Shown in pieces: positions 41,853 through 60,464 of a stretch of DNA of 64,000 nt. Each line of letters starts with the position of its first letter. The first letter of the stretch is position 1. A program made the position numbers and the translations under genes. This DNA comes from Candidatus Nanoarchaeia archaeon (GTDB lineage: Archaea > Nanobdellota > Nanobdellia > Pacearchaeales > GW2011-AR1): positions 37,981 to 101,980 of the forward strand of contig JBGQNO010000001.1 in the NCBI GenBank assembly GCA_041501125.1, given 5' to 3'. The notes beneath the pieces were generated by a model. It searched no databases. It saw only the letters and a program-made list of their open reading frames with translations, and was not told the DNA's origin.

Positions 41853-42308
41853 ATGAACAATCAGCCACGATACTCGCTCAAGAATATAACAGACAAAAAA
41901 AACAAGAATGCTTTTGTTCAACTTATTAAATACTTTTTTACAGGCGGCATTGCAGCAGTAATTGACATAGGGTCTTTTTTATTATTCTCAATAAGTTTGC
42001 ATATTGATTACAGAATTTCAATAGTTCTTAGCTTTACCTTGGGCACATTAACTAACTTTTTCATATGCAATGCTTTTGTTTTTGAACGGAAAAGCCTGTC
42101 ACTATTCGCAGCAGCATACAGGCATTACCTATCGAGCCTTGGCGGACTGGTAACCAATGAGATAGTTATGATGTTTCTTATTGAACTTTTGAATTTCAGC
42201 AATCTGCTTATCGCAAAATTAATAGCTACTGCAGCAGCATTCATGGTTAATTTTTTGTTGATTAAATTTTATGCATTTAACAGCAAGATTAAAATACTCC
42301 AAAACTAG
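41853..42308 (+). CDS. GtrA-family polysaccharide-synthesis membrane protein
   Basis: 151 aa, 4 TM. KYFFTGGIAAVIDIGSFLLFS is a GtrA signature. Confidence 0.6.
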   Translation: MNNQPRYSLKNITDKKNKNAFVQLIKYFFTGGIAAVIDIGSFLLFSISLHIDYRISIVLSFTLGTLTNFFICNAFVFERKSLSLFAAAYRHYLSSLGGLVTNEIVMMFLIELLNFSNLLIAKLIATAAAFMVNFLLIKFYAFNSKIKILQN

Positions 42309-43355: not shown

Positions 43356-44779
43356 CTCTTTTTTTCCTCGTGATACTCAGCATCAGTATTAACCTGCCAT
43401 TGGTCATATTTTCCTTCGCCAAGGATATTTTTTACAGCCAAAAGCGCAGTCATCATTGAGTGATCCGAGTTATTGTATCTGTGCAAGCCCCCTCTTCCAA
43501 TCGGCTGAAGAGAATTATCTTTAAAATTATTTTGCAGGTATGCTTTAATTATATTTACCTTCTCTTCATATCCTACAAGGTAAACTGGATAAACCTCTTT
43601 CAACCTGATAACCTCTGCATCAAAAACTTTTTCCACGCTTGCGAAGCTGAGTCTTTTCAAGTCTTGTTTTGCCTGTTCAATTAATTGCTCTTTAGACATA
43701 TTCCATAATTCATCTCCTTCATTGCAGGCATATTCAAATCCTATGCAGGATTTGCTTGCATCAGGCACCATGAAAGGACTCCAGTTCTTAAAAATTTGCG
43801 CTCGAATCGGCTTCATGCCTTCATCATGAGTATAAACCCAAGTGTCTGGCACAGTTTTGGGCTGGTCAATCATCAAAGCGACAGTTATGAAATCCCTAAA
43901 TCTCAAAAATTTAGCAGCATCAAGTATTTCCTGGAAAGGTTTGGGTTCTAATGAAAAAATTAGTTCTCTCAAAGGCATTGTAGACAGTACATAATCTGCC
44001 CTGAATTTTTTATTCTTCTTGCTGTTCTGTGCAGTCACTGAAACAATTTTGCCATTTTTGTGTTTTATCTTCACGACCTTCCATCCTTTCAGCACCTTGC
44101 CTTTCTTTGCCTCAATCAACCTGGTTACATGTTCCCACATCATGCCAGGCCCGTATTTAGGATATTTGAACTGCTCAATCAGGGACTTTATGTTATTGTC
44201 CTTGACGCCAAGAGATTTCTTTAAAGCATCTTTCAACGCGCTCATGAATGAAATTCCTTTGATTCTCTGACTGGTAAAATCCTTGCTTAAATACTTTGGA
44301 TGCACACCCCAAAGCTTAAAATTGTAGTCAATGAAAAATGGCTTTGCAAGATAATGCCCAAAATTATTAATGCACCAGTCAGCAACACTAATCTCAGGAA
44401 CTATAGGTTTGAGTTTTGCCTTTGCATAGCTCAATGCTATTTTCATTGAGTCAACCAGTCCAAAGACTCCAAGCAGTTCAAGGGGCTTTATTGGATAGTC
44501 AAAAAACTTCTTCCTGTAGTACCACCTTGATAATCTGGGTCTTGTCAAGAAATCTTCGTGCAAAATATTTTCCCACCATGCCTCAATTTCCCTGTTTTTA
44601 GTAAAAAATCGATGCCCTCCAATATCAAATCTGAAACCTTTGTAATTTATGGTTCTGGAAATGCCGCCGACAATGTTGTCTCTTTCCAGCACAGTCACCT
44701 TAAATCCCTTTTTAACAAGTTCATAGCCGGCAGTCAATCCTGCAGGTCCAGCACCGATTATTAAGACTGTTTTAGGCAT
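43352..44779 (-). CDS. FAD-dependent oxidoreductase (amine-oxidase/UDP-galactopyranose-mutase-like fold)
   Basis: 475 aa. N-terminal dinucleotide-binding motif LIIGAGPAGLTAGYEL. Confidence 0.6.
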   Translation of the reverse strand: MPKTVLIIGAGPAGLTAGYELVKKGFKVTVLERDNIVGGISRTINYKGFRFDIGGHRFFTKNREIEAWWENILHEDFLTRPRLSRWYYRKKFFDYPIKPLELLGVFGLVDSMKIALSYAKAKLKPIVPEISVADWCINNFGHYLAKPFFIDYNFKLWGVHPKYLSKDFTSQRIKGISFMSALKDALKKSLGVKDNNIKSLIEQFKYPKYGPGMMWEHVTRLIEAKKGKVLKGWKVVKIKHKNGKIVSVTAQNSKKNKKFRADYVLSTMPLRELIFSLEPKPFQEILDAAKFLRFRDFITVALMIDQPKTVPDTWVYTHDEGMKPIRAQIFKNWSPFMVPDASKSCIGFEYACNEGDELWNMSKEQLIEQAKQDLKRLSFASVEKVFDAEVIRLKEVYPVYLVGYEEKVNIIKAYLQNNFKDNSLQPIGRGGLHRYNNSDHSMMTALLAVKNILGEGKYDQWQVNTDAEYHEEKKS

Positions 44780-44837: not shown

Positions 44838-46343
44838 ATGGAACGTGGCTTGAAGGAGCAAGTTGTTAAGAATTCATTCTGGGCTTTCGCATCTTCTTTG
44901 ATAAACAGGCTTGGAGCATTAATTTTCACAATCATACTTGCACGATTCCTGCTTCCAGAAGGTTTTGGATTATATTCAATTGTCCTATCAACAGCAATGA
45001 TATTCTACACATTTGCAGACCTTGGAATAAACTCAACAATGATAAGGTATGTCTCGCATGCCCTCGCAAATAATAAAAAGAAAGTCTATGCATATCACCG
45101 TTATTTGCTCAAGGTAAAGTTTTTCCTGACACTGGCAGTGTCAGTTGTGTTGCTTGCCCTGTCCTATCCTCTGGCACTTTATGTTTTTAAGAACTCTGCA
45201 TTATTTGTTCCATTCATAACGTCTGCATTTTACATTTTTGTGCTTTCATTTGACACCTTTTATACATCATTTTTCTATACAATTGAAAAAGTGCAGTATG
45301 TCAGCTTTAAGGAGTCATTAAGCCAGATTCTCAGAATTGTTTTTGCACTTGTGGTGTTCTATGTTCTGGCATCTTCATATTATGTTGCAGGAATATTTGT
45401 ATCCTTGGCATTAATTTCATTATTCCTTGTTATTTTTATGTTGTATTACTTGAAAAAGTTGATTCCAGAGATATTCCTGCATCCTGGAAAAGAAATTGGG
45501 ATTGACAAAGCAAGAGTTTTGAAATTTGCAGGTTTCCTGACAATTGCAAGCATCTCTACAATATTCTTTTCTTATGTAGACTCAATTATGCTTGGAATGT
45601 TTTTGAAGCCAGAGTTTGTTGGTTTCTATCGTGCGGCATTCTCGCTTGTTTCAGGAGTTTCAGCCATTATTCTTGCACCAGCAGTTATTTTGTTGCCAAT
45701 GTTCACAAAACTTAAAAAATCCAAAACTGAAAATGCATTAAACCAGATTTTCAAGTATCTTACAATCTTTGCAGTTCCAGCAGCATTCGGCTTGCTTATT
45801 CTTGGAAAATATTTTGTAAGATTTTTCTATGACTATTCATACATTCCAGCAGCCCTGCCTCTTTATTTTCTTTCATTTTTAATAATTCCAGTAGTTTACG
45901 TGTCTGTTTTCCTTCCGCTTTTTTCAGCACGGGAAAAACCGCAGATTTTTGCAAAAATAATTGTGGCAGCAAGCATACTCAACATAATACTAAACTACAT
46001 TTTAATCAAGGCACTTCTTCCAGTATCGTCAATCTGGGCAACTGCCGGAGCCAGCATAGCTACTTTGACAAGCTGGATTTTCTATCTTATTGCAGTTGTT
46101 TATGTCTCTAAAAAAGAACTTGGCATTGCAGTTTCATTTAAGCATTTAATCAGGCCATTTATTGCAGGCATTATTATGTCCGGAGCTGTGCTTTATACAA
46201 TGACCTTCTTCAAGGACATGACTTTTATCTCAGGCACATTAGAGATATTGCTGGGCATACTAGTTTATTTCGGCGCATTGTTCTTGATAGGCGGGATAAA
46301 ACGCGAAGATTTTGAACTTATCAAGTTATTAAGAAGATTATAG
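44838..46343 (+). CDS. Wzx-like oligosaccharide flippase (MOP superfamily polysaccharide transporter)
   Basis: 501 aa, about 14 TM helices. N-terminal polysaccharide biosynthesis protein pattern. Confidence 0.6.
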   Translation: MERGLKEQVVKNSFWAFASSLINRLGALIFTIILARFLLPEGFGLYSIVLSTAMIFYTFADLGINSTMIRYVSHALANNKKKVYAYHRYLLKVKFFLTLAVSVVLLALSYPLALYVFKNSALFVPFITSAFYIFVLSFDTFYTSFFYTIEKVQYVSFKESLSQILRIVFALVVFYVLASSYYVAGIFVSLALISLFLVIFMLYYLKKLIPEIFLHPGKEIGIDKARVLKFAGFLTIASISTIFFSYVDSIMLGMFLKPEFVGFYRAAFSLVSGVSAIILAPAVILLPMFTKLKKSKTENALNQIFKYLTIFAVPAAFGLLILGKYFVRFFYDYSYIPAALPLYFLSFLIIPVVYVSVFLPLFSAREKPQIFAKIIVAASILNIILNYILIKALLPVSSIWATAGASIATLTSWIFYLIAVVYVSKKELGIAVSFKHLIRPFIAGIIMSGAVLYTMTFFKDMTFISGTLEILLGILVYFGALFLIGGIKREDFELIKLLRRL

Positions 46344-46389: not shown

Positions 46390-47745
46390 ATGGCAAAAGT
46401 TCTTTTGATACAGCCAAATTATGATATCAGCACACCGTATAGATGGCAGTCAGAAGCATGGATGCCGCTTGCCCTTGTCTCACTGGCAACTTATGTCAGA
46501 GACAAGAAAGGTCATGAAGTCAAAATTTATGACAGAAACTTGGACTATAACAATAACGGTTTTATTAGCATTTTAAGAAAATTTAATCCAGACATTGTTG
46601 GTTTAACATGTTATACATCACCTGCAATAAAGGATGTTATGCAGGTTTCTAAAATTACAAAGGAAAATTCCAAGGCAATAGTTCTTGTAGGTGGTCCGCA
46701 TGCCACGCTTGAGCCAAAGTCATTGCTTGATTATCAATACATTGATTATGTTGTTCGTGGCGAGGGCGAGCAGCCTCTTCTAGAAATCTGCGACCTTGTT
46801 GACAAGAAAAAAGCTGCAAAAAATAACATCTCAAAATTGAAAAACGTAAACTATAATGAAATGAGGCCCTTCATTAATCTTAACGATGTTCCTATAATGG
46901 ATTACGACCTGATTGATGTCAAAAGATACACAGTAACTACCTTTGCAACCAGCAGGGGCTGTCCGGGAAGATGCAGATTCTGCTACAACCAGGGAAGAAA
47001 GTTAAGATTCTATGATACTGCAAACACAATTGAGATGATGTCAAGAGTGATAAAAAAATACAGGATAAAAGAGTTTACAATAGCAGACGATAATTTTGCA
47101 AACATGAGCAAGAGAACTACGGACATATGCAATGCCTTGGCAAAATATAATTGCTCATTTTTCTGCTTTCTAAGAACTGACCAAGTCTATGACAAGGTAA
47201 TGTCTGAGTTAAAGAAAGCAGGTTGTCTTACAATTCAGTTTGGTTTTGAATCAGGCAGCCAAAGAATTCTTGATTTTATACGCAAAGACAATACAGTTGA
47301 GCAGAATGCAAAAGCTGTTGAGCAATGCAGGAAATACGGGATTTTTGTAGAAGGAAGCTTTATGATTGGACTGCCGACTGAAACAACCCAGGAACTTCAG
47401 CAAACAATCAGCTTCATAGAAAAAAATAAGCTCGATAATGTATTTACAAAAGTCTACAAGCCATATCCATCAACCGAACTTTATGATTATTGCATACAAA
47501 ACAAGCTGATGAAAAAGCCGGAAACACTTGAGCAGTGGATTGAATTCTCAAATCTTTCAGAAGGCAACATAAACGTGAGTGACATTCCCACACAGGTTTT
47601 GCTTAAGGCATTGCAAAGAACCAATAAACACGACGTATTAATGTACATTAAGAAAGGTTTGATAATGGTAAAAAGAGGAAACATCAGCTACGCATTATTG
47701 AGAGCCAAGCAACTGATAACTCAGCAACTTAAGAAATTCATTTAA
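46390..47745 (+). CDS. B12-binding (class B) radical SAM enzyme
   Basis: 451 aa. N-terminal cobalamin-binding-like domain. CxxxCxxC radical SAM cluster motif SRGCPGRCRFC. Confidence 0.8.
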   Translation: MAKVLLIQPNYDISTPYRWQSEAWMPLALVSLATYVRDKKGHEVKIYDRNLDYNNNGFISILRKFNPDIVGLTCYTSPAIKDVMQVSKITKENSKAIVLVGGPHATLEPKSLLDYQYIDYVVRGEGEQPLLEICDLVDKKKAAKNNISKLKNVNYNEMRPFINLNDVPIMDYDLIDVKRYTVTTFATSRGCPGRCRFCYNQGRKLRFYDTANTIEMMSRVIKKYRIKEFTIADDNFANMSKRTTDICNALAKYNCSFFCFLRTDQVYDKVMSELKKAGCLTIQFGFESGSQRILDFIRKDNTVEQNAKAVEQCRKYGIFVEGSFMIGLPTETTQELQQTISFIEKNKLDNVFTKVYKPYPSTELYDYCIQNKLMKKPETLEQWIEFSNLSEGNINVSDIPTQVLLKALQRTNKHDVLMYIKKGLIMVKRGNISYALLRAKQLITQQLKKFI

Positions 47746-48421
47746 ACTTTCTGGCTTTAATGACAAAGAATGAAGAGAAAATATTTGGACTAAGATTTGC
47801 CATCATCAGCCTAAGTCTATAGGGCAGCAAAAGATTTCCTGTCTTTGAAACCAGTCTTCTGGCAAATTCTTTTAGATTTCCAGTGTTGAGCGGCTCATTC
47901 CCATTAAATTTAGGCGAGTAATATGCATACACTATTTCAAACCCTTGACACTCAATCAGTCCTAATAGTTTTTCTTTTCTAAACCACTGCTTGTGGTGCG
48001 AGCCATCAGGCTTTACATTCGGCACGCTTATTATCACTTCACCGCCGATTTTCAAAATGCGTTTTATTTCACTGACAGTAAACTCAGGCCTGTCAAGATG
48101 CTCAAGGACCTCGCAACAATATACAGTATCAAATGAGCCATCCTTAAAAGGAAATTTCTTTTCGACATCACCTTTAACAACATCAAAATTAAATCTTTTC
48201 TTCGCGAATTCCAGTCCAGAATCTGAAATGTCAAACACTATTGCATTCTTGACACCAAGATACGCAAGCATTTGCCCATTCCCTCCACCAACATCAAGAA
48301 TCTTTTTCTTTTCTTTTGGCATTATTGACGTCCTGATTTTGTCATACGCCTTTTCATAATATCTTGTTCTTTTGCGTTCTTCAAACTGGTTTTGCCAATA
48401 GTCAGAGTAATCATATTTCAT
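47738..48421 (-). CDS. Class I SAM-dependent methyltransferase
   Basis: 227 aa. Motif I ILDVGGGNGQM, plus CCEVLEHL. Confidence 0.75.
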   Translation of the reverse strand: MKYDYSDYWQNQFEERKRTRYYEKAYDKIRTSIMPKEKKKILDVGGGNGQMLAYLGVKNAIVFDISDSGLEFAKKRFNFDVVKGDVEKKFPFKDGSFDTVYCCEVLEHLDRPEFTVSEIKRILKIGGEVIISVPNVKPDGSHHKQWFRKEKLLGLIECQGFEIVYAYYSPKFNGNEPLNTGNLKEFARRLVSKTGNLLLPYRLRLMMANLSPNIFSSFFVIKARKFK

Positions 48422-49364
48422 GTTTCAAAATCCTCTTGTAAAGGTCAAGATGCTTTCTGGCGACTTCTTCCCATGTTAATGTAATTTCTTTGCTTAATCT
48501 TGCTGCTCCTTTTCCTATCTCATTCCTCAACTTTTTGTCCTTAACAAGCTCTTTGATTCCTTTTGCAAGGTCATTGGTAAGATATGCAGTTTCCCTATGA
48601 GTCAAGAGATAACCAGGCCTGCCTTGAAAAGCAAGTATTGGTCGTCCAGCCCTTATGTACTCAAAGAATTTGAAGCTGCTGTCCTGGTCAGCTGGATTTA
48701 TCAGAATATCTGCTTGCTTCAAAACAGATGGAATTTCATCTGCAGGAATAAAACCCATGAAGTGAACATTTTTTCCAGCAGTCTTCTGGAATTCAGGATT
48801 CGGTTTTCCGAATAAGTATAGCTCACAATCCAAGCCCTGAACAGCATCTATCATCTTGTCCGTCTGCTTGTATCTTGACTGGTCACCAATGTAAACAACT
48901 TTAACTTTTCCTTTAAGTCTTATTTCAGTTAGCTTGACATTTGGCTGAACTCCATGTGGAATAAACTCTACTTTCTTGCCAAGAATCCCAGCCTTTACTT
49001 GATTATATTTGCTCATTGTCGTTATGTAGTCAGAATTAAGAATTGCAAACATCTCAAGATAGCTAGGCAAAGCTCCCCATTTCTTACCCATCTGCTCCGC
49101 ATAATAATCATCCCACATATGCACAATCGGCGTTCTTAGCAAGCCAATTTTCTTGAAGAATGATGGAATAAAGCCAGCAATTCCTGTAGCTACAACAATA
49201 TCTGGCTTAAATCTAAGATACTCAATATAAAACTTCCAGAAACTTCTTTTTGTTATCACGCGAACTTCATTGCCAAATTTTCTGAAAAAATACACGTCAG
49301 ATGTCAAACCCCATGGAACCTTGTCATATGTGTCCAGGTCAACTGCTACGAATAGGATTTTCAT
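48411..49364 (-). CDS. Glycosyltransferase (GT-B fold, GT1/GT4-like)
   Basis: 317 aa. C-terminal donor-binding region FMGFIP...ADILINPA...FEYIRAGRPILA. Confidence 0.5.
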   Translation of the reverse strand: MKILFVAVDLDTYDKVPWGLTSDVYFFRKFGNEVRVITKRSFWKFYIEYLRFKPDIVVATGIAGFIPSFFKKIGLLRTPIVHMWDDYYAEQMGKKWGALPSYLEMFAILNSDYITTMSKYNQVKAGILGKKVEFIPHGVQPNVKLTEIRLKGKVKVVYIGDQSRYKQTDKMIDAVQGLDCELYLFGKPNPEFQKTAGKNVHFMGFIPADEIPSVLKQADILINPADQDSSFKFFEYIRAGRPILAFQGRPGYLLTHRETAYLTNDLAKGIKELVKDKKLRNEIGKGAARLSKEITLTWEEVARKHLDLYKRILKHEI

Positions 49365-49400
49365 GTTTTGATTTACTTCTAGTGATATATAAAATTTTGT

Positions 49401-50015
49401 TTACTTGATTTTCTTGGCGACAATGTGGAAACTCCAGTAAGCATCCCGGCTTGGATTAAACTCTAATATTTTCATTCCATTTTCATTCAAAAATTTGTTG
49501 ACAACTTCATACGTAGGAATCCATTTGTGATTGTCGCTTACCCACGGGCCATTTGCATTCCACAGTTTCATAGATTTATGAGGAATGTAAAGGAATAATA
49601 TCCCGCCAGTTTTAAGTTTGCTTATCCACAGTTCAAGCGCTTCTTGCCACCTGTCAAGATGCTCAAGGCAATGGGAACTGAACACATAGTCTAAACTTCC
49701 ATCTTTGAAGTTGTCAAGCTTGTAGGCATTTTGTCTAGGTTCATTCTCAATTGGAACTGCTCCAGGAAACGGGAATCTTCCAGCACCAACATCAATTCCT
49801 TTTCCCTTGCAGAAATCTTTTGCCCTATTAAGTATAAATGCCATTGCATTGCTTTTGTTTAAATATTCTGGATATAGTTCGCCCTGATATTTGTAAAAAA
49901 CCTTTCCATTTATCTCAATTCGCTTGATTTGGCGCCTTCTCCACGCATTTAACAAGAAATAAAATACCTTTTTTGGGCTTGCTATGAAGCTTTTGAGTTT
50001 TGATGACAGTTCCAT
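49401..50015 (-). CDS. SAM-dependent methyltransferase
   Basis: 204 aa. GIDVGAGRFPF motif I, plus FSSHCLEHL. Confidence 0.6.
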   Translation of the reverse strand: MELSSKLKSFIASPKKVFYFLLNAWRRRQIKRIEINGKVFYKYQGELYPEYLNKSNAMAFILNRAKDFCKGKGIDVGAGRFPFPGAVPIENEPRQNAYKLDNFKDGSLDYVFSSHCLEHLDRWQEALELWISKLKTGGILFLYIPHKSMKLWNANGPWVSDNHKWIPTYEVVNKFLNENGMKILEFNPSRDAYWSFHIVAKKIK

Positions 50016-50096
50016 TTTAGTGTTTTCTTATAACGCCTGAACTCTTAAAAACCTTTCTGAAATAAACTTTTTAAACAACTTCATACTGTCTAGCCT

Positions 50097-51161
50097 ATGG
50101 CATTTAGCAGCATCAAAAACATATTCACTTCGCATCAGAAGGAAGCAGTCAAAAATATATTGAGAGATTTTGTTTATTACACCTGGAAGTTCCTTAGCCC
50201 CTACAAACAAATACTTGATTCTAAAGACATTAAACATGTGCTTGTGGTAAACAAAGGTGTAATCGGTGACTTGCTTGTTATAACACCGATGATAAAAGCG
50301 CTTGCTAAAAAATACCAGAAAGTAGACATTCTTATGCGGCAGGACATGGCAGAGATATTATCTGGAAATTCCAACATAAACAAACTCATGTTCTACACTA
50401 ATTTTGATGACGTGCTTAAGCAGATTAAAGGCAAATATCAGCTGGCTATACTCTTTAATCCGCCAACCTATGAGATGAAGAATCTATGCAGGCAAGCAGG
50501 CATAAAATACATTGTAGGAAACAGTTTTTCATACTCCTTGTCTGATTTTCTCTTAACAGCCAGAACACGAGAAAATTCCAATGAACATTTTGTCCAGAAA
50601 GCACTGGACCAAGCAAGGCTTGCTAATGCAGACATCAAAAACCCAAAAACAGAATTCTTTTTCTCAAAAAAAGATGAGGCATACGTTGAAGATATGCTGA
50701 AATCAAATAAGATTAAAGACTTTGTAGCTGTTCATGCAGGCAAGCGCGGCAATATTAAAGACCCAAATACAAAAAGATTCTTCTGGCCTTCAGAGAGATT
50801 TGCCCAGGTTATTGATTACATTGTCCAAAAATATAAACTTCCAGTTATTCTTACAGGCTCAAGCATGGAAAAAGAAAGAAACGAAGAAATAATGTCTCTT
50901 GTAAAATCAAAAAATGTTTTTAATTTCTGTGAAAAAACAACTCTTAAACAATGGGCGTGTTTGCTGAAGAAAGCCAAGCTTCTTGTAAGCCTGAATACAG
51001 GTGCAACACATATCGCAGCCGCTATGAACACTAAAACAATTGTAATAAATGAAGAATTTCCAGAACTCTGGCATCCATGGCTTCCAGAATCAAGATATAG
51101 AACTTTGCCTTATCCATCAATTGAGCAAGCCAAGGAAGCAATTGATGAGATGTTAGATTAA
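50097..51161 (+). CDS. Glycosyltransferase family 9 (heptosyltransferase-family)
   Basis: 354 aa. GDLLVITPMIKALAKKY N-terminal pattern and C-terminal LVSLNTGATHIAAAMNTKTIVI GT9 signature. Confidence 0.7.
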   Translation: MAFSSIKNIFTSHQKEAVKNILRDFVYYTWKFLSPYKQILDSKDIKHVLVVNKGVIGDLLVITPMIKALAKKYQKVDILMRQDMAEILSGNSNINKLMFYTNFDDVLKQIKGKYQLAILFNPPTYEMKNLCRQAGIKYIVGNSFSYSLSDFLLTARTRENSNEHFVQKALDQARLANADIKNPKTEFFFSKKDEAYVEDMLKSNKIKDFVAVHAGKRGNIKDPNTKRFFWPSERFAQVIDYIVQKYKLPVILTGSSMEKERNEEIMSLVKSKNVFNFCEKTTLKQWACLLKKAKLLVSLNTGATHIAAAMNTKTIVINEEFPELWHPWLPESRYRTLPYPSIEQAKEAIDEMLD

Positions 51162-51165
51162 CATC

Positions 51166-52274
51166 TTAAATGAAATCTAAGCCACAATAACAATTCTTGC
51201 ATACAGGCAACATCTTGTCTATAAAAGCATTTTTTCTAAATTCTTTAAATTTCTTAGAGTTCCATATGTTATCAATATTATCAGTTAGAATATTTCCCAT
51301 ATTCATTCTAATAAAACCACATGGAATTATGTCACCATTATAGTCCAAAAAAAGCATGTTTCTTGCCGTGCAGATTAGTCTCTTTGACCTTAAACTGAAT
51401 ACATTGTAATTAGACGATTCTTTTAAAATAGGGTTAATCTCAATCCGGGCATCAATATTTTTCATTCTTTTGTATGTTTCAAAAAACTCTTTTATACTAA
51501 TATTATCACTTTGCATACAAGTCGATATCATCCCCCCCCCCCGTCAATAATTTTTAATGTATCTTCAATTTGCCCACTTTTCATATTTTGAATAGGATAA
51601 GTTAACCCAAATGATTTTGTCCCTAGGTCCTTGCACAATTTAATAACTTTTTCTGCATCATGAATGTTCTCTTTTTGCAAAACAAAATTAATACCCACAT
51701 CAAAATTTTTAGTCAAAATTTTTATAGTCTTTACTGTTTTGTTAAAAGCCCCGATTCTTCCACGGATTTTGTCGTGAGACTCTTGTAGTCCATCTAAGGA
51801 TATTGAGACGCCGGTAATCGGATAGTTCTTTAATTTCTCTGCAATATTTTCATTGATAAGAGTACCATTGGTTCCAAATTCTATGTTCATTTGATTGTCT
51901 TTTATACAGTCAAGAATTTGAAACAAATCATCTCTCAGAAGGATTTCACCACCAGTTAAACAAATCTTTTTGATGCCAAACTTCTTTAAAGAGAATATAG
52001 CCTTCTCAATCTCTTTTGAAGACAACTCATCTGCATGCAGTTTATTCAGATTTTTAGCTCTGAACTCTTTTTGATGGCACATCTGGCAATTTAGATTACA
52101 TCTCATAGTAAGAAAAATTAGAGCATTTTTTGGCTTAGGAAAGTCTGCCATATTCTTAATCCTTGAATAATCTACTCTTTTCTTTAATTTTGAATATGCT
52201 CTTATTATATACTCGCCAAAGATGTTACTATCTAATGATTTTATAAGTTTTTCTTTCAAAAGTTTAAAGTTCAT
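51166..52274 (-). pseudogene. Radical SAM enzyme with C-terminal SPASM domain, split by a frameshift inside an 11-nt poly-G/C tract
   Basis: Upstream part 51528-52274: CNLNCQMC radical SAM motif, ends ...IIDGGGG then TGA. Downstream part 51166-51531: SPASM Cys motifs CTARNM...CGF...CKNCYCG. A +1 G (12 G) would fuse the frames. Confidence 0.75.
51532..51542. repeat. Homopolymeric C(11) tract (G(11) on the coding strand) at the frameshift site
   Basis: Read directly: tccccccccccccg spanning 51532-51542. Confidence 0.9.
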
Positions 52275-53089
52275 TTTGTAATCTCTATCCTCTTTGCGTA
52301 AAGAACATTCAGCCCGTTATTTCCAGGATACAGCATCCTGACATCAAACCCGTTTTTCTCAAGAAAGTTTTTCATTGTCTGCACATCTCTTTTCTCGTCA
52401 AGAGCATGAACTTCCATGCTTATCTTGTCAATCCTTTTAAGAAGTTCTGGAGCAGAGAAAAGAATTTCATATTCTGCTCCTTCGCAGTCGCATTTAAGAA
52501 AATTTATCCTGTCTATTTTGTTCATCGCAAAAACATCCTTCAATGAAATTGTCTTTATCGAAAATTTCTGCCTGTTCTCGCCGCCTGTTATGTAAAATGA
52601 ATGCCCTCCGGTGTTTATGCCAGAAACCATTATGTCTTTGTTGCCAGTCTTGTCAGAAACACCAGCATTATATGCAACAACATTCTTCAAATTATTCAGT
52701 TTTGCATTATCCTTAAGCCTGTCAAAATTCTCCTTTACAGGCTCAAATGCATAAACTTTTCCTTCAGAAGCTTTTGATGCAGCATAAACAGTAAAAACTC
52801 CAACATTTGCGCCTATATCCATGATAATGTCATTTTTGTTGATTTCAAATCCCTCTGGATTATACTCTTCATATACCCAAATTTCATTTATCATATTCCT
52901 CTCAAAACTGTCAGACTTTATCAGCAACTGAATGCCATTCCTGAACTTATAGACTAAGTTTGTATCTTTGTATTTGCCAAGAAAATCTTTGAAATATGTG
53001 GGCCAATTTTTTATTAGCTTGATAATCTTGAATCCAGCAGCTATCTGCTTGAGTCCTATTTTAGTGTCGCGATTCCTGCTTAATTTCAT
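52271..53089 (-). CDS. FkbM-family SAM-dependent methyltransferase
   Basis: 272 aa. MDIGANVGVFTVYAAS motif typical of Methyltransf_21/FkbM. Confidence 0.65.
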   Translation of the reverse strand: MKLSRNRDTKIGLKQIAAGFKIIKLIKNWPTYFKDFLGKYKDTNLVYKFRNGIQLLIKSDSFERNMINEIWVYEEYNPEGFEINKNDIIMDIGANVGVFTVYAASKASEGKVYAFEPVKENFDRLKDNAKLNNLKNVVAYNAGVSDKTGNKDIMVSGINTGGHSFYITGGENRQKFSIKTISLKDVFAMNKIDRINFLKCDCEGAEYEILFSAPELLKRIDKISMEVHALDEKRDVQTMKNFLEKNGFDVRMLYPGNNGLNVLYAKRIEITK

Positions 53090-54174
53090 TTTTCACTCAA
53101 ATTAGCGTCTTTTATTAACTTTTCCAATTTAGGCAGAAGAATCTTCCAGTCAAACCTTTTGACATTTTTTCTTGCTTCTTTGCCCATTTTTATTGCAAGT
53201 TTCTTGTTGTCAGCCAAGAAATCAATAGTCTCAGCTATGCTCTCAGGCCTGACTCCATCCAGAAGAAAACCTGTTTTTCCATTTATTACGCTCTCGCGTA
53301 ATCCACCCTCGTTTTCACCGATTATAACTTTTCCAGAAGCTCCTGCTTCCAGAGGCACAAGCCCCCAGTCTTCATTAATGCATATGCTTATCACTCCAAG
53401 GCAATTTGCATACAATCTGGCAAGTTCCTTGTCAGACACGTTTCCAAGAAATTTAACATTGGAATAATTTTTGCACAACTCAACTATTTTGTCCTTGTCA
53501 GGCCCATCACCTACAACATAAAGCTCAATGTCTTTGTTCTTTACAAGCCCCATGCTTTTGATTGCAATATCCACTCGTTTGGCAGGAACAAATCTTCCAA
53601 CAGACAGGATATAATTTTGATAGCTTTTTGGCTTGTAGTCATTATAATTTATTCCATGATAGACTACTTGTGCATCTCGTCCATAATACTTTTTCACTCT
53701 CTCACGTACATTTATGCTGTTAGTTGCTATTGTCTTTATGTTCTGGGCAGCCAGTTTGTCAAGTCCCTGAAAAAGAAGCTTTTTCAGCACCAAGGATATT
53801 TTTCCCAGGAAGCTGGCATTATTCCAGTAATATCTTCGCAAATCATAAAAATCTCTTTTTGGAGAATAACAAACCCAGAATACATTGTCATTTCTTAAAC
53901 TTGCAAAATTTGTCGGCCAGTCATTTGCAATAACAACATCAAATCCATCAAATTTCTTGAACCAAAACACAAATGGCGAGAAGATTTTTGACTTTAGCCC
54001 AAGAAGATTTATCTTCAGTTTCTTGAAACCAGGATATGCTGTTTCGGAATTGTATCTCTGGGTAAAGATTTCAACTTCATGCCCTCTTTTCTGCAGGTAA
54101 AGTGCGTAGGTTTCTATAACTCTCTGGGCACCGCCAATTCCCTCAATATAAGGCTGGAGTATTGCTATCTTCAT
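53086..54174 (-). CDS. Glycosyltransferase family 4 (GT-B)
   Basis: 362 aa. E-x7-E motif region GENEGGLRESVINGKTGFL. Confidence 0.75.
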   Translation of the reverse strand: MKIAILQPYIEGIGGAQRVIETYALYLQKRGHEVEIFTQRYNSETAYPGFKKLKINLLGLKSKIFSPFVFWFKKFDGFDVVIANDWPTNFASLRNDNVFWVCYSPKRDFYDLRRYYWNNASFLGKISLVLKKLLFQGLDKLAAQNIKTIATNSINVRERVKKYYGRDAQVVYHGINYNDYKPKSYQNYILSVGRFVPAKRVDIAIKSMGLVKNKDIELYVVGDGPDKDKIVELCKNYSNVKFLGNVSDKELARLYANCLGVISICINEDWGLVPLEAGASGKVIIGENEGGLRESVINGKTGFLLDGVRPESIAETIDFLADNKKLAIKMGKEARKNVKRFDWKILLPKLEKLIKDANLSEK

Positions 54175-54232
54175 ACATTTTTTAGAATGGTTATATATTT
54201 AAATTCGTTTCTTTATCATAAAATGCCTGAAA

Positions 54233-55369
54233 ATGGAAAGTTTTGCAACGAATTTAGCGACATTGTTTAGAAGACTTGGTGTAATGGCAGATTATATAGC
54301 CTGGCTTCTGCTTGACCCAAGCAAATTTACTATAATAAAAAAAGAAAAAATCAAAAAAGTCTTGGTTATTCATCTGGGTGCTATTGGAGAAGTCATTATC
54401 TCAACCCCGATTATTCCTGCTTTGAAAAAATCATTGAAAGCACAAATAGTATACATGGTTTCCCCTGGCAAGGAAGTTCTTTTTGAAAATAATCCTTATA
54501 TAGACAAGGTTTTGACTTATCAGGACAATTTCTGGAAAAATATTGATGCCTTGAAAAAAGAAAAATTTGACATTGTGTTTATTATTTATCCAAGCTCCCA
54601 GAAACTGGCTCTTGAATGTCTTTTAGCTGGAATAAAATACAGGATTGGAGGATTTAAGGCAGTAAAATCTCCACTTAACCTGCTTCTGACAAGAAAAATG
54701 CTTGACTTCAGGAAAAAACACGCTGTTCACTGCAATCTTGATGTTATAAGAACTATAGGCATTGACAACAAAAATCCAGAGCTTGAACTGCATATTCCAG
54801 ACATTTACAACAGGAAAATCAATAATCTGCTGAAACAGCTTAAGATAAAAGAATTTGTAATTATCCATCAGGGTTCAAGTTTCCTGGGCAAATTGAAATA
54901 TCCGTCAAGGCTTTGGCCATTGGACAGATATGCAAAAGTTGCAGACTTTATTTCTAAAAATTATAATGTCAAAATCCTGATTACAGGCGCTCCTGGAGAA
55001 ACGCCATTTACAAACGAATTAATAAAGCAAATAAAAGATAAAAGAAATGTCATTAACCTTTCAGAGAAGCTGAATCTTGGAGATATGATGGCTCTTGTTT
55101 CCAGGGCAAAACTATTGATTGCACCAAGCACAGGCATTGCTCATATTGCAGCAGCCTTAGGAACTCCGATGGTTCATTTGTCAGGTCCGGACGGTTATCA
55201 CTGGCAGCCATGGGCCAAGAAAGGCAAGTGCATTGCAATACAGCACCTTGAAGTATGCACAGGATGCAACACTATAATCTGCAGAAAGAAAAATACAGAA
55301 TGTTTAAAAGCCATAACTGTCAGCGATGTAACCCAGGCAGCAAAGCATTTCCTGGGGAAAATTAAGTAA
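54233..55369 (+). CDS. Glycosyltransferase family 9 (heptosyltransferase-family), second copy
   Basis: 378 aa. LIAPSTGIAHIAAALGTPMVHLSGP GT9 signature. KKVLVIHLGAIGEVIISTP N-terminus. Confidence 0.75.
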   Translation: MESFATNLATLFRRLGVMADYIAWLLLDPSKFTIIKKEKIKKVLVIHLGAIGEVIISTPIIPALKKSLKAQIVYMVSPGKEVLFENNPYIDKVLTYQDNFWKNIDALKKEKFDIVFIIYPSSQKLALECLLAGIKYRIGGFKAVKSPLNLLLTRKMLDFRKKHAVHCNLDVIRTIGIDNKNPELELHIPDIYNRKINNLLKQLKIKEFVIIHQGSSFLGKLKYPSRLWPLDRYAKVADFISKNYNVKILITGAPGETPFTNELIKQIKDKRNVINLSEKLNLGDMMALVSRAKLLIAPSTGIAHIAAALGTPMVHLSGPDGYHWQPWAKKGKCIAIQHLEVCTGCNTIICRKKNTECLKAITVSDVTQAAKHFLGKIK

Positions 55370-55415
55370 TTCTTGATTACAATAATCTTTATAAATTTCC
55401 AGCGTAAGCTAGAGT

Positions 55416-56906
55416 ATGGCTAAGAAAATTCTTTTGGGCGCAGAATATTCAGTTTTAGAGCCCCTGGCATTGTTCTATCTTTCAGCAGTCGCCAAATCTG
55501 AAGGAGTTGAGTCTAAAATTGTTTTTGGCAGAGGCCCTCAATATCCAGAATGGAGAGAAGCTTTAAGCACATTCCAGCCTGATTTTCTAGGACTAAGTGT
55601 CTATACCGGACACCATGCTGCAATCAAAAAATTCTTAAAAGACGTCGTCAAGCCAAAATATCCAACTCTTGAAGTAATTGTTGGAGGCCCTCATGCAACC
55701 TTCTTTCCAAGACAGGTTTTAGATTTTGCAGATTACGTTGTTGTAGGAGAGGGATTTGGTTCATTAAGAAAAATTTTGAAAGGTGAAGCTCCAAAAGGGA
55801 TACTTCTCCCACTGGATAAGGAACAGTTTCCAAAGTCTGACAGGGATGATTTTTACAAAGAATACCCGGAGCATCTTAAAAATAGAATCAAGAATGTTAT
55901 AGCTGGAACAGGCTGCCCATACATGTGTTCATATTGTTATAATAGTGCAAATTTTGACGAAAATCCTGACTTTGATGAATCACAGAAAAAACTTTTGCTT
56001 GAAAAATATCCTCATAAAAGGTTCTTTCCCTTGGAGCAAAGGCCTGTTCAGGATTTTGTTGATGAAATTTCAGATGTCCTCAGATTATCTCCTGAGACAG
56101 AATTTTTTTATTTCCAGGATGATGTTTTTGGCAGTAACCTGGACTGGCTGAAAGAATTTGTTTCCAAAGCTTCTATAATGGACATATCTTTCCATGCAAA
56201 TACACGATTTGAACATATTGACCCAAGAAAGGATTCTGGAAAAGAAAGAATTGACTTGCTGAAAAAAGCAGGCTGTACAGGGTTTTCAATAGCTATAGAA
56301 TCAGCAGACCCTATTATTTGCAGGGAAGTTTTGTCAAGAAATCTCGACCATGATTTAGTATTTGCTTCAATGAATTATCTTCATGAGCACGGATTCAAAG
56401 TCAGAACCAATAATATGCTTGGACTGCCGCTTGGAGCAACTATGAATCCGACAAAAGTCAATCTTGAAGCAGACCTGGAAACTCTTGAGCTGAATGTCAA
56501 GTTATACAAAGAATTTGGCATTCCAACTTTCGCATGGGCTTCTACACTTGCACCTTATCCAGGAACGCATATTGACAGATACTGCAAAGAGCATGGTTTC
56601 TATGAGAATGTCTTTACAGATTTAACAGGAGAAGAAACCTACAGGATTAAAAGTGTTCTAAGGCATCCAAGAAAATGGGTTGGCTCGGAATTATCATCAA
56701 AAACACCTGAGGTATGGCTGTCCAATTATGAAGAGGAAATGTACAGGAATCAGATTAATACTTTAATGAACTTATTTCCGACTTTTGCGAAAATTCCTGA
56801 TGGGCATAAACTTGCCCGGGAATTTTTAGAACACGATAATCTTAATTTTGAAGTTCTTAATAAAGCATTCAGAACGCATGTATACAATAAAGAACTCTTT
56901 TTATAA
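55416..56906 (+). CDS. B12-binding (class B) radical SAM enzyme
   Basis: 496 aa. N-terminal B12-binding-like fold. Cluster motif GTGCPYMCSYCYN. Confidence 0.75.
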   Translation: MAKKILLGAEYSVLEPLALFYLSAVAKSEGVESKIVFGRGPQYPEWREALSTFQPDFLGLSVYTGHHAAIKKFLKDVVKPKYPTLEVIVGGPHATFFPRQVLDFADYVVVGEGFGSLRKILKGEAPKGILLPLDKEQFPKSDRDDFYKEYPEHLKNRIKNVIAGTGCPYMCSYCYNSANFDENPDFDESQKKLLLEKYPHKRFFPLEQRPVQDFVDEISDVLRLSPETEFFYFQDDVFGSNLDWLKEFVSKASIMDISFHANTRFEHIDPRKDSGKERIDLLKKAGCTGFSIAIESADPIICREVLSRNLDHDLVFASMNYLHEHGFKVRTNNMLGLPLGATMNPTKVNLEADLETLELNVKLYKEFGIPTFAWASTLAPYPGTHIDRYCKEHGFYENVFTDLTGEETYRIKSVLRHPRKWVGSELSSKTPEVWLSNYEEEMYRNQINTLMNLFPTFAKIPDGHKLAREFLEHDNLNFEVLNKAFRTHVYNKELFL

Positions 56907-56943
56907 AATAAGGCTTATAAAGTCAAAAGTAACTTCTTAACTA

Positions 56944-58305
56944 ATGAAAATCAACCTTATCGTTCTTCCATTTGAAGAAAATGTCAAGTCACCGCCGATT
57001 TGTCTCGGTTATATAGCCTCGCTTTTAAAGAAAGACAGTAATGATATCAAAATCATAGACTTAAACTTTGAAACTCAGATTTCTCAGGCAGATTTGAATA
57101 TTGTAACTACAACAACAGTCGATTACTATAACTGCCCTTTATTGAATATGGATGTTATTGACAAATGGCTCTCTGTTATTTCCAAGATAAAAACACCCCT
57201 TGCAGTCATAGGTCCGCATGTTACAACAATGCCTGAATATTTTGAAAAATATGCCCAGTATCTTGTTGTAGGCGAGCCAGAACTCACAATAAAAGAACTG
57301 GTTGTTTCATTAACAGAAGGTAAGTCACTAAAAAATATAAAAGGACTTTATTATAAGCAAGGCAGGAAATTTATCAAGAATAAGTCCCGTGAATTGCTTC
57401 AAAATCTCGATAGTTTGCCTTTTCCAGACAGAAGTTTGATTGATAATTCTCGCTATGTTAATCCAGTATGCAAAAATCATCCTTACACGATGGTCATTTC
57501 AAGTAGAGGATGTCCATACCACTGCACATACTGTTATATGGATGTCTACGGGCATTTTTGGAGAGCAAGAAGCGCTAAAAATGTAGTTCAAGAATTAATA
57601 GAAATCAGAAGAAAGTATAATATAAAAGAAATTGTCTTTCGCGATGATTTATTCTCGCTTGACAAAAAGCGCGTTATAGAAATCTGCAATGGTATTGTAA
57701 AGAATAATCTTGATTTGACATGGACCTGCCAGACCCGGGTTGATTCTGTAGACGAAGAAATAATAAGCAAGATGAAAGAAGCCGGCTGTTACTCTATATC
57801 CTTTGGCATAGAAGCCGGCTTGCAAGAGATGATGAACCGGTTGAAAAAAGGAATTAAAGTCGAGCAGGTCAAGAAAGCAATCTTTCTCTGCAAGAAATAT
57901 GATGTAAGAACAAGAGGATATTTTATAATTGGCTGTCCAGGCGAGACAAAAGAATCAATTCAGCAGACACTTGAACTTGCCAAAGAGCTTGACTTGGACT
58001 ATTTTATGCTTAGTATACTAACACCATATCCTCAGACAGAAATTTATGAAGATGCTTTTAAGAAGCGAATTATTAAAAAACGAAGTTGGGATGAAGCGCT
58101 GAGATGCGCAGGCATTATTGAAACGCCTTTTACATTCAATGAACTTGTGAAAATGAAGCGTGATTTATATTTAAGATATTATTTCAGGCCAGGATACATA
58201 CTGCCAAGATTAGCGCCTGGAAAAATAGACATGCTTTACCATGGCTTCATGCCGTTTGTCAAAAACATGATGATAAGAAAATTCAGAGGCAAAAAACTGG
58301 ATTAA
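56944..58305 (+). CDS. B12-binding (class B) radical SAM enzyme
   Basis: 453 aa. Cluster motif SSRGCPYHCTYCYM. N-terminal B12-like domain. Confidence 0.75.
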   Translation: MKINLIVLPFEENVKSPPICLGYIASLLKKDSNDIKIIDLNFETQISQADLNIVTTTTVDYYNCPLLNMDVIDKWLSVISKIKTPLAVIGPHVTTMPEYFEKYAQYLVVGEPELTIKELVVSLTEGKSLKNIKGLYYKQGRKFIKNKSRELLQNLDSLPFPDRSLIDNSRYVNPVCKNHPYTMVISSRGCPYHCTYCYMDVYGHFWRARSAKNVVQELIEIRRKYNIKEIVFRDDLFSLDKKRVIEICNGIVKNNLDLTWTCQTRVDSVDEEIISKMKEAGCYSISFGIEAGLQEMMNRLKKGIKVEQVKKAIFLCKKYDVRTRGYFIIGCPGETKESIQQTLELAKELDLDYFMLSILTPYPQTEIYEDAFKKRIIKKRSWDEALRCAGIIETPFTFNELVKMKRDLYLRYYFRPGYILPRLAPGKIDMLYHGFMPFVKNMMIRKFRGKKLD

Positions 58306-59498
58306 TTCTTGACAAGTTTTCTGTACATGCTAAAAGTTTCCTTGGCAATCTCTCTCCACGAGAATTTCTTTTCTGCTGTTTTCCTTGCAATCTTGCCAAG
58401 TAAATCTCTTTTCTTTTCATTTCCCAGAAGACTCGTAAGCTGTTTTGCCAGTTCATCAGATTTAATTGGGTTAAAATACAGAATTTCTTTATTCTTGCCG
58501 AGTTCCATGTTTGGTGCAATGTTTGATGATATTATTGCAAGCCCAGACGCCATTGCTTCAAGCAGGACAAGAGGCAACCCTTCTGCAAAACTCGGAAGAA
58601 CAAAAATATCAGCAGCCCGGTAATATTCAGGCATTTTGATATTCTCAACACTTCCAATAAATTTGACATATTGCTGAAGATTGTTTTCATTGACAAAATT
58701 CATAATCTCCTCAAAATATTTTTTATCATCAATTTGCCCGATAAAAATGAATTTTACATTCTTGTCCTTGGACAAAACTTTTGGAATAGCTTTGATTATT
58801 GCCATCTGGTTCTTGATTCTTGAAATCCTTGCAACGCACAATACTATCTTTTCATCAGTCTTGGCAAGCATTTTCCTCACACCAGACTTGCCTGGATAAA
58901 ATTTGATTAAATCAACACCATTTGAAATATGAATAACTTTTTTGGAATCAACACCTGCGCGTTTTTCTATTGATTTTTTTAAGGTTTCAGACACTGCAAC
59001 GACCTCATCAGCATTTTTGAAGCATAGTCTTTCTACTGAAGTTTTCAGCCAGAATGTCTTTGGCAGCATCTCATTGGACAAAGTCCAGAATGGTGTGTGC
59101 AAAGTATAAACAAATTTGCTTTTGTAAAATAATCTGTTCATTAACGAGAGTGCAAAGCCAGTGTACTGGTTATGGCAGTGTATTATGTCAAATTTCTCCT
59201 TACACATCAAAGGAATGAAATTAACCAGTGTCTTGATTGTGTATAACATTCTTCTTGCCACATGTCTTAATGTGCCAGGTGTTGTGTATACATCAGGCCC
59301 CCATGCTTTTGGCATGTCAATATTATGGTAGATAACCCCGGATAATTTATCTCGGTTATTATCCTTAAAATCAAGGATATGAACCTCACAAAGCTTGCTA
59401 AGTTCCTTTGACAGGTTGTATGCTACAGATTCTGTTGCTGTAGCACTCTTGGCAGAAATTGAGGACATTCCAGTCCCGACTTGCAAGACTTTCATGAC
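58302..59498 (-). CDS. Glycosyltransferase family 4 (GT-B)
   Basis: Start trimmed to MKVLQVGTGMSSIS. The track ORF extends to 59786 through low-complexity sequence. FAEGLPLVLLEAMASGLAIIS motif. Confidence 0.7.
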   Translation of the reverse strand, partial: VMKVLQVGTGMSSISAKSATATESVAYNLSKELSKLCEVHILDFKDNNRDKLSGVIYHNIDMPKAWGPDVYTTPGTLRHVARRMLYTIKTLVNFIPLMCKEKFDIIHCHNQYTGFALSLMNRLFYKSKFVYTLHTPFWTLSNEMLPKTFWLKTSVERLCFKNADEVVAVSETLKKSIEKRAGVDSKKVIHISNGVDLIKFYPGKSGVRKMLAKTDEKIVLCVARISRIKNQMAIIKAIPKVLSKDKNVKFIFIGQIDDKKYFEEIMNFVNENNLQQYVKFIGSVENIKMPEYYRAADIFVLPSFAEGLPLVLLEAMASGLAIISSNIAPNMELGKNKEILYFNPIKSDELAKQLTSLLGNEKKRDLLGKIARKTAEKKFSWREIAKETFSMYRKLVKN

Positions 59499-59547
59499 AT
59501 ACAGAAAAGAAAATAATTTATAAAGGTTGCCTGTTTGTCCGATTGCA

Positions 59548-60423
59548 ATGATAAGCGTAATCATAACATCATACAAAGAACCTGGAACCATAGGAAGAGC
59601 TATAGAATCAATTGCTGAACAGAAGCTTCTAGATACTGAAATTATAGTTGTAGCTCCAGATATGGAGACGCTGGCAGAAGCAGGCAAACTCCGGCAGAAG
59701 TATAAGAATTTGCGATTAATACAAGATGAGGGCAAAGGAAAGTCATCTGCACTCAACTTGGCAGTTTCAAAAGCAAAAGGAGACATTCTTGTGCTGACTG
59801 ATGGCGATGTTTACGTTGGCAATGACTCTATACTTCCACTTTTAACACCTTTTACTGACGGCAAGATAGGTGCTGTCTCTGGAAATCCAGTCTCATTAAA
59901 TCCCAAGGATAATAAATTTGGTTTCTGGGCGTATGTTCTGACGAAAGTAGCAGATGAAAGAAGAATTTATGCCTCTGAGCATAATCTCAGATTTTTCTGT
60001 TCAGGATATCTGTTTGCAATCAGAAAAAAACTTTTTCCAAATCTTCCAGAAGACTTGCTTTCAGAAGACGGATATATCTCGCATAAAGTCTATAAAGAAG
60101 GATTCGAAATCGCATATTCTTCAGAATCTAAGGTATTTGTGAAGTATCCTGATAACTTTGATGGTTGGATAAAGCAGAAGAAAAGAAGCGCCGGCGGTTA
60201 CAATCAGATTAAAAAAATGATAGGTGTGGAAATTCGTTCATTTAAAAAAGAATATTCGGGCGCGATTTCATTCTTCAAGTATTTTAAAGGTTTGAAAGAG
60301 CTGTTGTGGCTTTTTGAACTGTTCGCAGCCAGAGTTTATCTATGGATTATTATCTATCGGGATATAGATGTCAAAAATCAAAGCCATCATAAAATCTGGC
60401 AAAGAGTAGAAAGCACAAAATAA
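59548..60423 (+). CDS. Glycosyltransferase family 2 (GT-A)
   Basis: Start trimmed to MISVIITSYKEP. SALNLAVSKAKGDILVLTDGDV DXD region. Confidence 0.7.
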   Translation: MISVIITSYKEPGTIGRAIESIAEQKLLDTEIIVVAPDMETLAEAGKLRQKYKNLRLIQDEGKGKSSALNLAVSKAKGDILVLTDGDVYVGNDSILPLLTPFTDGKIGAVSGNPVSLNPKDNKFGFWAYVLTKVADERRIYASEHNLRFFCSGYLFAIRKKLFPNLPEDLLSEDGYISHKVYKEGFEIAYSSESKVFVKYPDNFDGWIKQKKRSAGGYNQIKKMIGVEIRSFKKEYSGAISFFKYFKGLKELLWLFELFAARVYLWIIIYRDIDVKNQSHHKIWQRVESTK

Positions 60424-60464
60424 AGTATAGAAAAATCTTTATACCTCTCGATTGTCGTTTCGGC

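Follow-up and report, generated by a model that had tools for sequence, protein, structure and literature searches.

Three radical S-adenosylmethionine (rSAM) enzymes, designated rS1, rS2 and rS3, are encoded in a surface-glycan locus of a DPANN archaeon, Candidatus Nanoarchaeia archaeon (contig JBGQNO010000001.1). The window is the whole stretch of this contig that was analysed, 64,000 nucleotides in length; the glycan locus occupies window positions 40056-63476. The reading put forward here is that the three enzymes are distinct, functional families with class B architecture which tailor a heptose-type surface glycan; its chances of being right are judged to be about even. That rS1, rS2 and rS3 tailor a sugar or glycan of some kind is probable. 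The rS2 family is tightly associated with genes for the synthesis and transfer of ADP-heptose.

All three open reading frames (ORFs) lie on the plus strand and start with ATG at the positions originally predicted: rS1 (46390-47745, 451 aa), rS2 (55416-56906, 496 aa) and rS3 (56944-58305, 453 aa). The predicted CxxxCxxC motifs are CPGRCRFC at residue 191 of rS1, CPYMCSYC at residue 167 of rS2 and CPYHCTYC at residue 190 of rS3. Scores against Pfam Radical_SAM (PF04055; cutoff 29.5 bits) are 81, 58 and 82.5 bits respectively; since the E-values range from 1e-15 to 1e-23, the rSAM assignment is not a product of chance. An N-terminal cobalamin-binding-like domain had been proposed for each protein. 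This is true of rS1 and rS2, which score 76.1 and 61.5 bits against Pfam B12-binding (PF02310; cutoff 32.1). rS3 stays below that cutoff with 19.0 bits, and its Rossmann-like N-terminal domain is degenerate. As predicted, rS2 and rS3 are neighbours that run in the same direction; 37 nt separate them. The description of the enzymes as paralogous is accurate at the superfamily level only. They are not close relatives; identity is 32% between rS1 and rS3, 25% between rS1 and rS2 and 23% between rS2 and rS3. Since mutual identity is so low, they are three separate families and not recent duplicates. In a comparison with the sister strain L174 (511-kb contig), the ratio of nonsynonymous to synonymous substitution (dN/dS) is 0.10-0.11 for the three genes (0.10 for rS1 and 0.10 for rS2). 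Judged from this divergence, all three enzymes are under purifying selection and are functional families.

The rS2 family is small and divergent. A word-seeded search of 5.8 billion proteins yields 258 matches, mostly from Nanoarchaeota and Woesearchaeota; among 1.84 billion cluster representatives, approximately 45 score above 300 bits with the family profile, and most of these match it nearly over its full length. Loci of this family were gathered from metagenomes with a family-specific C-terminal pattern and by orthologue look-ups. The loci counted have at least 8 kb of flanking sequence; their ORFs were labelled by phmmer against the window proteins, and the set was de-duplicated. The control consists of 56 loci of other B12 rSAM families, obtained from a contig scan with the full rS2 alignment seeded on the generic rSAM motif.

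In 14 of 45 loci, the rS2 orthologue has a gene of glycosyltransferase (GT) family 9 no more than 300 bp away, and in 23 of the 45 no more than 3 kb away. HldE domain II (HldE-II) is found within 10 kb in 24/45 loci and a homologue of the window's GT2 gene in 22/45. A homologue of the membrane GT-C gene at 61881-63476 occurs within the same distance in 18/45 loci, compared with 0/56 control loci. At least one of GT9, HldE domain I (HldE-I), HldE-II and GmhA is present within 10 kb in 38 of the 44 de-duplicated loci. The association persists when the anchors are clustered (32/37 clusters at 70% identity; 15/17 at 60%). Among the control loci, which were not screened for HldE-I or GmhA, GT9 is found once and HldE-II never. 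The commonest unlabelled neighbour of rS2 is the HldE kinase domain, in some cases as a fusion with GmhA; in related loci, both the kinase (349.6 bits against 345) and GmhA (213.4 against 209.45) pass their NCBIfam cutoffs. The association is observed in DPANN archaea, in bacteria of the candidate phyla radiation (CPR) and in metagenome-assembled genomes labelled Deltaproteobacteria, Polyangiales and Methanosarcinales.

Because this neighbourhood of GT9, HldE and GmhA genes is conserved, heptose is the candidate substrate of rS2. The enzyme may act on ADP-heptose, or on a heptosyl residue set by the neighbouring GT9 enzyme; this assignment could equally well prove right or wrong. A literature search turned up nothing that ties a B12 rSAM enzyme, at the level of a family, to an ADP-heptose/GT9 module. 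It was also considered that rS2 replaces the HldE kinase and GmhA by generating heptose through C-methylation of a hexose. This was rejected as a general role; other loci contain an rS2 orthologue together with complete HldE and GmhA.

The window itself contains three genes of this type. The product of 60465-61856 (plus strand) is a fusion protein. Its N-terminal domain passes the curated model for D-glycero-beta-D-manno-heptose-1-phosphate adenylyltransferase (TIGR02199, rfaE_dom_II) with 185.6 bits against a cutoff of 181.5; the remainder is a class I methyltransferase (Pfam Methyltransf_11, 64 bits). Two heptosyltransferase-like GT9 genes, GT9a (50097-51161) and GT9b (54233-55369), lie on the plus strand and score 64.6 and 80.1 bits against Pfam Glyco_transf_9 (PF01075; cutoff 22). 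Both are below the cutoffs of the curated NCBIfam equivalogs for heptosyltransferases I, II and III (e.g. 88.7 against 134.6). With this content the locus is a heptose-type surface-glycan cluster.

The glycan setting that was originally described is found well beyond this window. The genes from 40056 to 63476 are of glycan type, and DPANN archaea and CPR bacteria repeatedly have orthologues of rS1, rS2 and rS3 in such loci; the same genes are found in glycan loci of sister strains and of distant relatives. On a 19-kb scaffold from another organism, each of the three enzymes has an orthologue with 55-66% identity; the scaffold is syntenic with the window, in the order GT1x, rS1, GT4a, GT9a, rSAM, epimerase, rS2, GT9b, rS3, GT4b, rSAM. 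Within this arrangement, certain enzymes and glycosyltransferases form pairs. The glycosyltransferase conserved beside rS2 is GT9b; for rS3 it is GT4b (58302-59564, minus strand; Pfam Glycos_transf_1 116.6 bits, Glyco_transf_4 83.8 bits), which accompanies it in 4/4 lineages and is adjacent or nearly so in L004, L005, L173 and L174. The pairing of rS1 with the GT1/GT4-like gene GT1x (48411-49364, minus strand; Pfam Glyco_trans_1_4) is less consistent (3/7 lineages; L005, L171, L174 and L175). The order FAD oxidoreductase, Wzx, rS1 is kept in L170. rS1 has 873 homologues, mostly in Pacearchaeota and Nanoarchaeota; homologues of all three proteins for which a source is named are mostly labelled Nanoarchaeota, Woesearchaeota or Pacearchaeota. 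More distant relatives of rS3 in Patescibacteria are also situated within glycan loci. The predicted link to sugar chemistry is well supported by this recurrent glycan context, and the counter-case named with the prediction, generic maturases unrelated to sugars, is not borne out.

Some of the related loci are rich in rSAM genes. L005 (14 kb) carries five rSAM genes with B12-type domains and L007 (21 kb) carries four, plus three other rSAM genes; this density is unusually high for very small genomes. Several genes that are absent from the window recur in L004, L007, L012, L171 and other rS2-family loci. They encode a QueC-like ATPase (TIGR00364, 151 bits; cutoff 150.3), a nucleoside 2-deoxyribosyltransferase-like protein, carbamoyltransferases, fusions of a short-chain dehydrogenase/reductase (SDR) with a DegT aminotransferase, pairs of a sulfatase with a 3'-phosphoadenosine 5'-phosphosulfate (PAPS) reductase, and a GSU2086-family protein.

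Carbohydrates are established substrates of B12 rSAM C-methylases and their relatives, which include GenK, GenD1, Fms7, HpnJ and OxsB (PMC12931638). C-methylation is the commonest activity of the class and is known on sugars (PMC12931638); for this reason, cobalamin-dependent C-methylation is picked as the single most likely chemistry for rS1 and rS2, with a probability that is still well short of even. The reduced [4Fe-4S] cluster would cleave S-adenosylmethionine, and the resulting 5'-deoxyadenosyl radical would take hydrogen from a sugar carbon of a nucleoside diphosphate (NDP)-sugar or of a glycan linked to lipid or protein. Methylcobalamin would then supply the methyl group that quenches the sugar radical in rS1 and rS2, and the sugar would be C-methylated as it is by GenK and GenD1. 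rS3 might follow the same route or might be a cobalamin-free radical dehydratase or rearrangase, similar to AprD4 or HpnJ. The original prediction had offered C-methylation, C-epimerisation or alkylation of sugars. The sugar part is supported by the glycan context, but sequence does not single out methylation; since methylating and non-methylating members of this large group are not separable by sequence (PMC12931638), C-methylation is one option among several.

A more specific proposal can be made for rS2. The family may represent an undescribed cobalamin-dependent radical modification of heptose (C-methylation or chain extension, on ADP-heptose or on a heptosyl residue added by GT9) which would be conserved in DPANN and CPR surface-glycan synthesis. 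The locus would then consist of rSAM-glycosyltransferase pairs that build C-branched or deoxy sugars, and cobamides would be scavenged. This extended proposal is less likely than not to be right. DPANN and CPR organisms with reduced genomes are generally reported to lack cobamide synthesis.

High-confidence structure models of the proteins combine a Rossmann domain with an rSAM barrel and resemble TsrM, MgmA, CysS, TokK, OxsB and AprD4; the search for structural neighbours covered the PDB. The best PDB-sequence matches are AprD4, MgmA (9CCB), OxsB, TokK and CysS, with 23-127 bits. The AF2 model of rS2 has a predicted local distance difference test (pLDDT) score of 92 and a five-strand Rossmann fold; its PDB neighbours all have template modelling (TM) scores of 0.61 or less. 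The rS3 model is missing one Rossmann helix. A GGPH(A/V)T-type signature after strand beta4, common to TokK, CysS and 4Q37, is kept in all three proteins. None of the three has the DxHxxG motif, as expected for class B; cobalamin-dependent members of the class bind it base-off and do not need the motif, according to a 2026 review (PMC12931638). AprD4 and ArsL have Rossmann-like domains which do not bind cobalamin (PMC12931638). Alignment had been suggested as a check for B12-binding determinants; given these properties, and because methylating and non-methylating members are not separable by sequence (PMC12931638), it cannot settle cobalamin use.

The rS2 family has a YTGNH motif at residues 63-67 (window approximately 55602-55616), with Thr64, Gly65 and His67 invariant; in the rS2 of the window it reads YTGHH. 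The motif falls at the loop which bears the lower-axial Trp (CYVWN) in TokK and CysS, and on this alignment His67 could contact cobalamin. The lower-axial residue (TokK Trp76, OxsB Asn186, TsrM Arg69) was considered as a discriminator between methylases and non-methylases and was dropped; mapping based on OxsB moves the site by two residues.

A number of observations weigh against tailoring of a heptose glycan by three cobalamin-dependent methylases. Firstly, none of rS1, rS2 and rS3 reaches a curated NCBIfam cutoff (HpnJ, BchE, AprD4, MgmA, PhpK or MiaB); consequently, no reaction can be transferred by homology. The non-methylating enzymes BchE, HpnJ and ThnL are indistinguishable from methylases by sequence (PMC12931638). 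The residue opposite TokK Trp76 is an invariant Gly65 in the rS2 family and Ser in rS1, which is not the reported radical-methylase pattern, and the mapping is ambiguous. In rS3, the B12-binding score is under the Pfam threshold, and the structural match is led by the cobalamin-free AprD4, with the B12-dependent methylase MgmA almost equal. Secondly, neither HldE domain I kinase nor GmhA is found in the 64-kb window by tblastn. No cobalamin-related gene or riboswitch is seen in the window either; the regulatory-RNA search returned only 5S rRNA and tRNAs. Thirdly, most control loci come from other phyla, so the contrast with the rS2 family may partly reflect lineage and not function. Finally, one rS1 orthologue (P0251, 62% identity) is situated among housekeeping genes, e.g. 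those for seryl-tRNA synthetase and ribosomal protein S10.

An alternative is a glycan substrate with chemistry other than methylation in one or more of the enzymes. The sugar ring could be contracted to give a carbocyclic cyclitol, the reaction proposed for HpnJ and Cds; a 1,2-diol could be dehydrated and the sugar in this way deoxygenated, as by AprD4 with a reductase; or the sugar could be epimerised. Cobalamin would then be absent or serve only as an electron sink. For rS3 in particular, dehydration as by AprD4 (PMC5461906) or rearrangement as by HpnJ or Cds (PMC13459092) competes seriously with methylation; that one or more of the enzymes use such chemistry is possible but less likely than not. 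HpnJ (TIGR03471; cutoff 577.6) is the top NCBIfam match of rS1 and rS3, with 160.9 and 233.3 bits, and gives 37.3 bits with rS2. For BchE (TIGR02026; cutoff 481.35) the scores of rS1, rS2 and rS3 are 148.1, 37.1 and 165.3 bits; no bacteriochlorophyll genes are present in the window. The AprD4 family (NF033070; cutoff 500) gives 75.6, 31.0 and 148.1 bits in the same order. The methylase models fare similarly: the MgmA model (cutoff 360) gives 133 bits with rS1 and a further score of 126 bits, and a TsrM-type model gives 37.9 bits with rS3 against a cutoff of 500. rS2 scores no more than 53 bits with any NCBIfam model.

A target other than a sugar is unlikely. Under this explanation the enzymes act on the lipid carrier, on membrane lipids, or on a protein or peptide such as a glycosylated surface protein, and the locus is shared through the target. 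Related curated families do modify lipids (ladderane-type rSAM enzymes, 126-130 bits; HpnR) as well as proteins and peptides (MgmA, 126-133 bits; ApyD; methylases of ribosomally synthesised and post-translationally modified peptides); lipid-modifying rSAM enzymes are common in archaea (PMC13459092), and the GT-C/PMT-like enzymes of the locus point to transfer from a lipid-linked donor to a protein. However, the rS2 family is found specifically beside GT9 and genes for cytoplasmic ADP-heptose synthesis across distant lineages, and the conserved neighbours of the three genes include none for lipid synthesis and none that resembles a precursor peptide. It is very improbable that these are generic housekeeping rSAM enzymes (MiaB/RimO-like modifiers of RNA or protein, or cofactor maturases) which lie in a glycan locus by chance; this would suit the setting of P0251, a database entry which names one rS1 relative as MiaB-type, and the presence of MiaB and RimO among the structural neighbours, but the MiaB/RimO model (TIGR00089) gives only 54.5 bits with rS1, 41.3 bits with rS3 and no match with rS2 against a cutoff of 251, and the context is a glycan locus in nearly every other case examined. 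Since the neighbours are conserved, action on lipid or protein and a housekeeping role are both less likely than tailoring of a glycan.

The locus also contains a fourth rSAM gene, which was missed in the original prediction. This gene (51166-52274, minus strand; Pfam Radical_SAM 93.8 bits, SPASM 55.3 bits) falls into two overlapping pieces, a core ORF (51528-52274) and a SPASM ORF (51166-51531). The split point is a C11 homopolymer (51532-51542), the sole G/C run of at least seven bases in the window; one additional base in this tract restores a single ORF of 369 aa. Full-length homologues of 341-350 aa are present in L007, L170 and L171, and an independent assembly (Logan contig L002) breaks inside the tract. 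Sister strains, whose flanking genes are more than 90% identical, have a gene for a class I methyltransferase at this slot (L174, 6090-6791; L175, 6878-7573). The slot behaves as a strain-variable cassette within an otherwise conserved locus. The split may stem from an error in sequencing or assembling the homopolymer; alternatively, it may be a phase-variable switch within a glycan cassette that differs between strains. Synonymous divergence (dS) from L174 is also uneven along 46390-61856: 0.44 in rS1, 0.28 in rS3, 0.22 in GT9b, 0.17 in the HldE-II-methyltransferase gene and 0.05 in rS2. This approximately ninefold variation suggests recombination mosaicism.

In total, the locus encodes two GT-C (PMT_2) proteins, GtrA, a Wzx flippase, an SDR epimerase/dehydratase, an FAD oxidoreductase, one GT2, three GT1/GT4 and two GT9 glycosyltransferases, and four methyltransferases of the class I or FkbM type. 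The upstream part, annotated from Pfam and NCBIfam, comprises the first GT-C gene (40056-41843), gtrA (41853-42308), the SDR epimerase/dehydratase gene (42318-43355), the FAD oxidoreductase gene (PRK07208 family; 43352-44779, minus strand) and wzx (44838-46343), which is followed by rS1. Four further genes on the minus strand lie between rS1 and GT9b: two for class I methyltransferases (47738-48421, Pfam Methyltransf_11 76 bits; 49401-50015, Methyltransf_11 30.6 bits, with weak family matches), one for an FkbM-family methyltransferase (52271-53089; Pfam Methyltransf_21 78.5 bits; NCBIfam fkbM_fam 124.9 bits, cutoff 37.7) and GT4a (53086-54174; Pfam Glycos_transf_1 117 bits). Downstream of rS3 and GT4b are the GT2 gene (59548-60423; Pfam Glycos_transf_2 76 bits), the HldE-II-methyltransferase gene and the second GT-C gene (PMT_2/ArnT-like; Pfam PMT_2 28.3 bits), all on the plus strand. 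With HldE-II fused to a methyltransferase, the heptose nucleotide or the heptosyl residue may be methylated. An interpretation of the GT2 and GT-C proteins as a polyprenyl-phosphate sugar system of the GtrB/ArnC type was not adopted; the GT2 protein weakly resembles PgaC/IcaA.

The window has a G+C content of approximately 37% and is archaeal in character; reading of the ORF translations identifies archaeal PolD, Cdc6 and ribosomal proteins. Translations also reveal an 878-aa protein (2260-4896, minus strand) that is very rich in N-x-S/T sequons, starts with a signal- or anchor-like stretch and has a transmembrane segment at its C-terminus. This is a candidate S-layer-like surface glycoprotein and a possible acceptor of the glycan. 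Two tyrosine-recombinase (XerC/D-like) genes (24600-25442 and 28052-28885) bracket small ORFs without functional annotation, again on the basis of translations; the region between them may be an integrated element.

The class of rSAM enzymes that carry B12-type domains is very large, and for most of its groups no function is known (PMC12931638). Sugar tailoring by such enzymes is known in antibiotic and hopanoid pathways. A literature search did not find a description of DPANN or CPR loci for primary surface glycans in which several B12-type rSAM enzymes form pairs with glycosyltransferases. These organisms devote several such enzymes to surface-glycan loci; if the enzymes are truly cobamide-dependent, cell-surface synthesis in these symbionts would rely on a scavenged vitamin. 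The glycans may contain unusual C-methyl, deoxy or carbocyclic sugars, which would be relevant to host attachment and, in the case of NDP-heptoses, to innate immune sensing.

The three enzymes share features with several characterised systems. AprD4 (PDB 6FD2) is a 1,2-diol dehydratase which acts on paromamine and does not bind cobalamin; in contrast, the B12-binding domains of rS1 and rS2 are well preserved, and no AprD3-like partner is conserved beside the three enzymes. MgmA (also known as QCMT; PDB 9CCB) is a B12-dependent glutamine C-methyltransferase with a protein substrate, methyl-coenzyme M reductase; there are no methanogenesis genes here. HpnJ (hopanoid cyclitol-ether) and Cds (calditol synthase) are thought to remodel a lipid-attached sugar after a glycosyltransferase has acted, which resembles the rSAM-glycosyltransferase pairs of this locus; Cds is likened by function. 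The HpnJ and Cds reactions are themselves only proposed (PMC13459092), and no hopanoid or calditol pathway genes are found at the locus.

The bacterial ADP-heptose pathway (HldE, GmhA, RfaC/RfaF) has in common with the window HldE-II and two GT9 genes, to which related loci add the kinase and GmhA; NDP-heptose enzymes do occur in archaea (PMC11461863). Unlike the window, the bacterial pathway includes no rSAM enzyme. The window lacks a lipid A/Kdo acceptor as well as the kinase and isomerase, and its adenylyltransferase forms a fusion protein with a methyltransferase. GenK, GenD1 and Fms7 are similar to rS1 and rS2 in architecture and proposed role: they combine a B12 Rossmann domain with an rSAM barrel and tailor sugar carbons beside glycosyltransferases. 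Those enzymes belong to antibiotic clusters and act on aminoglycoside sugars, whereas the present setting is an archaeal primary surface-glycan locus and the putative substrate is a heptose.

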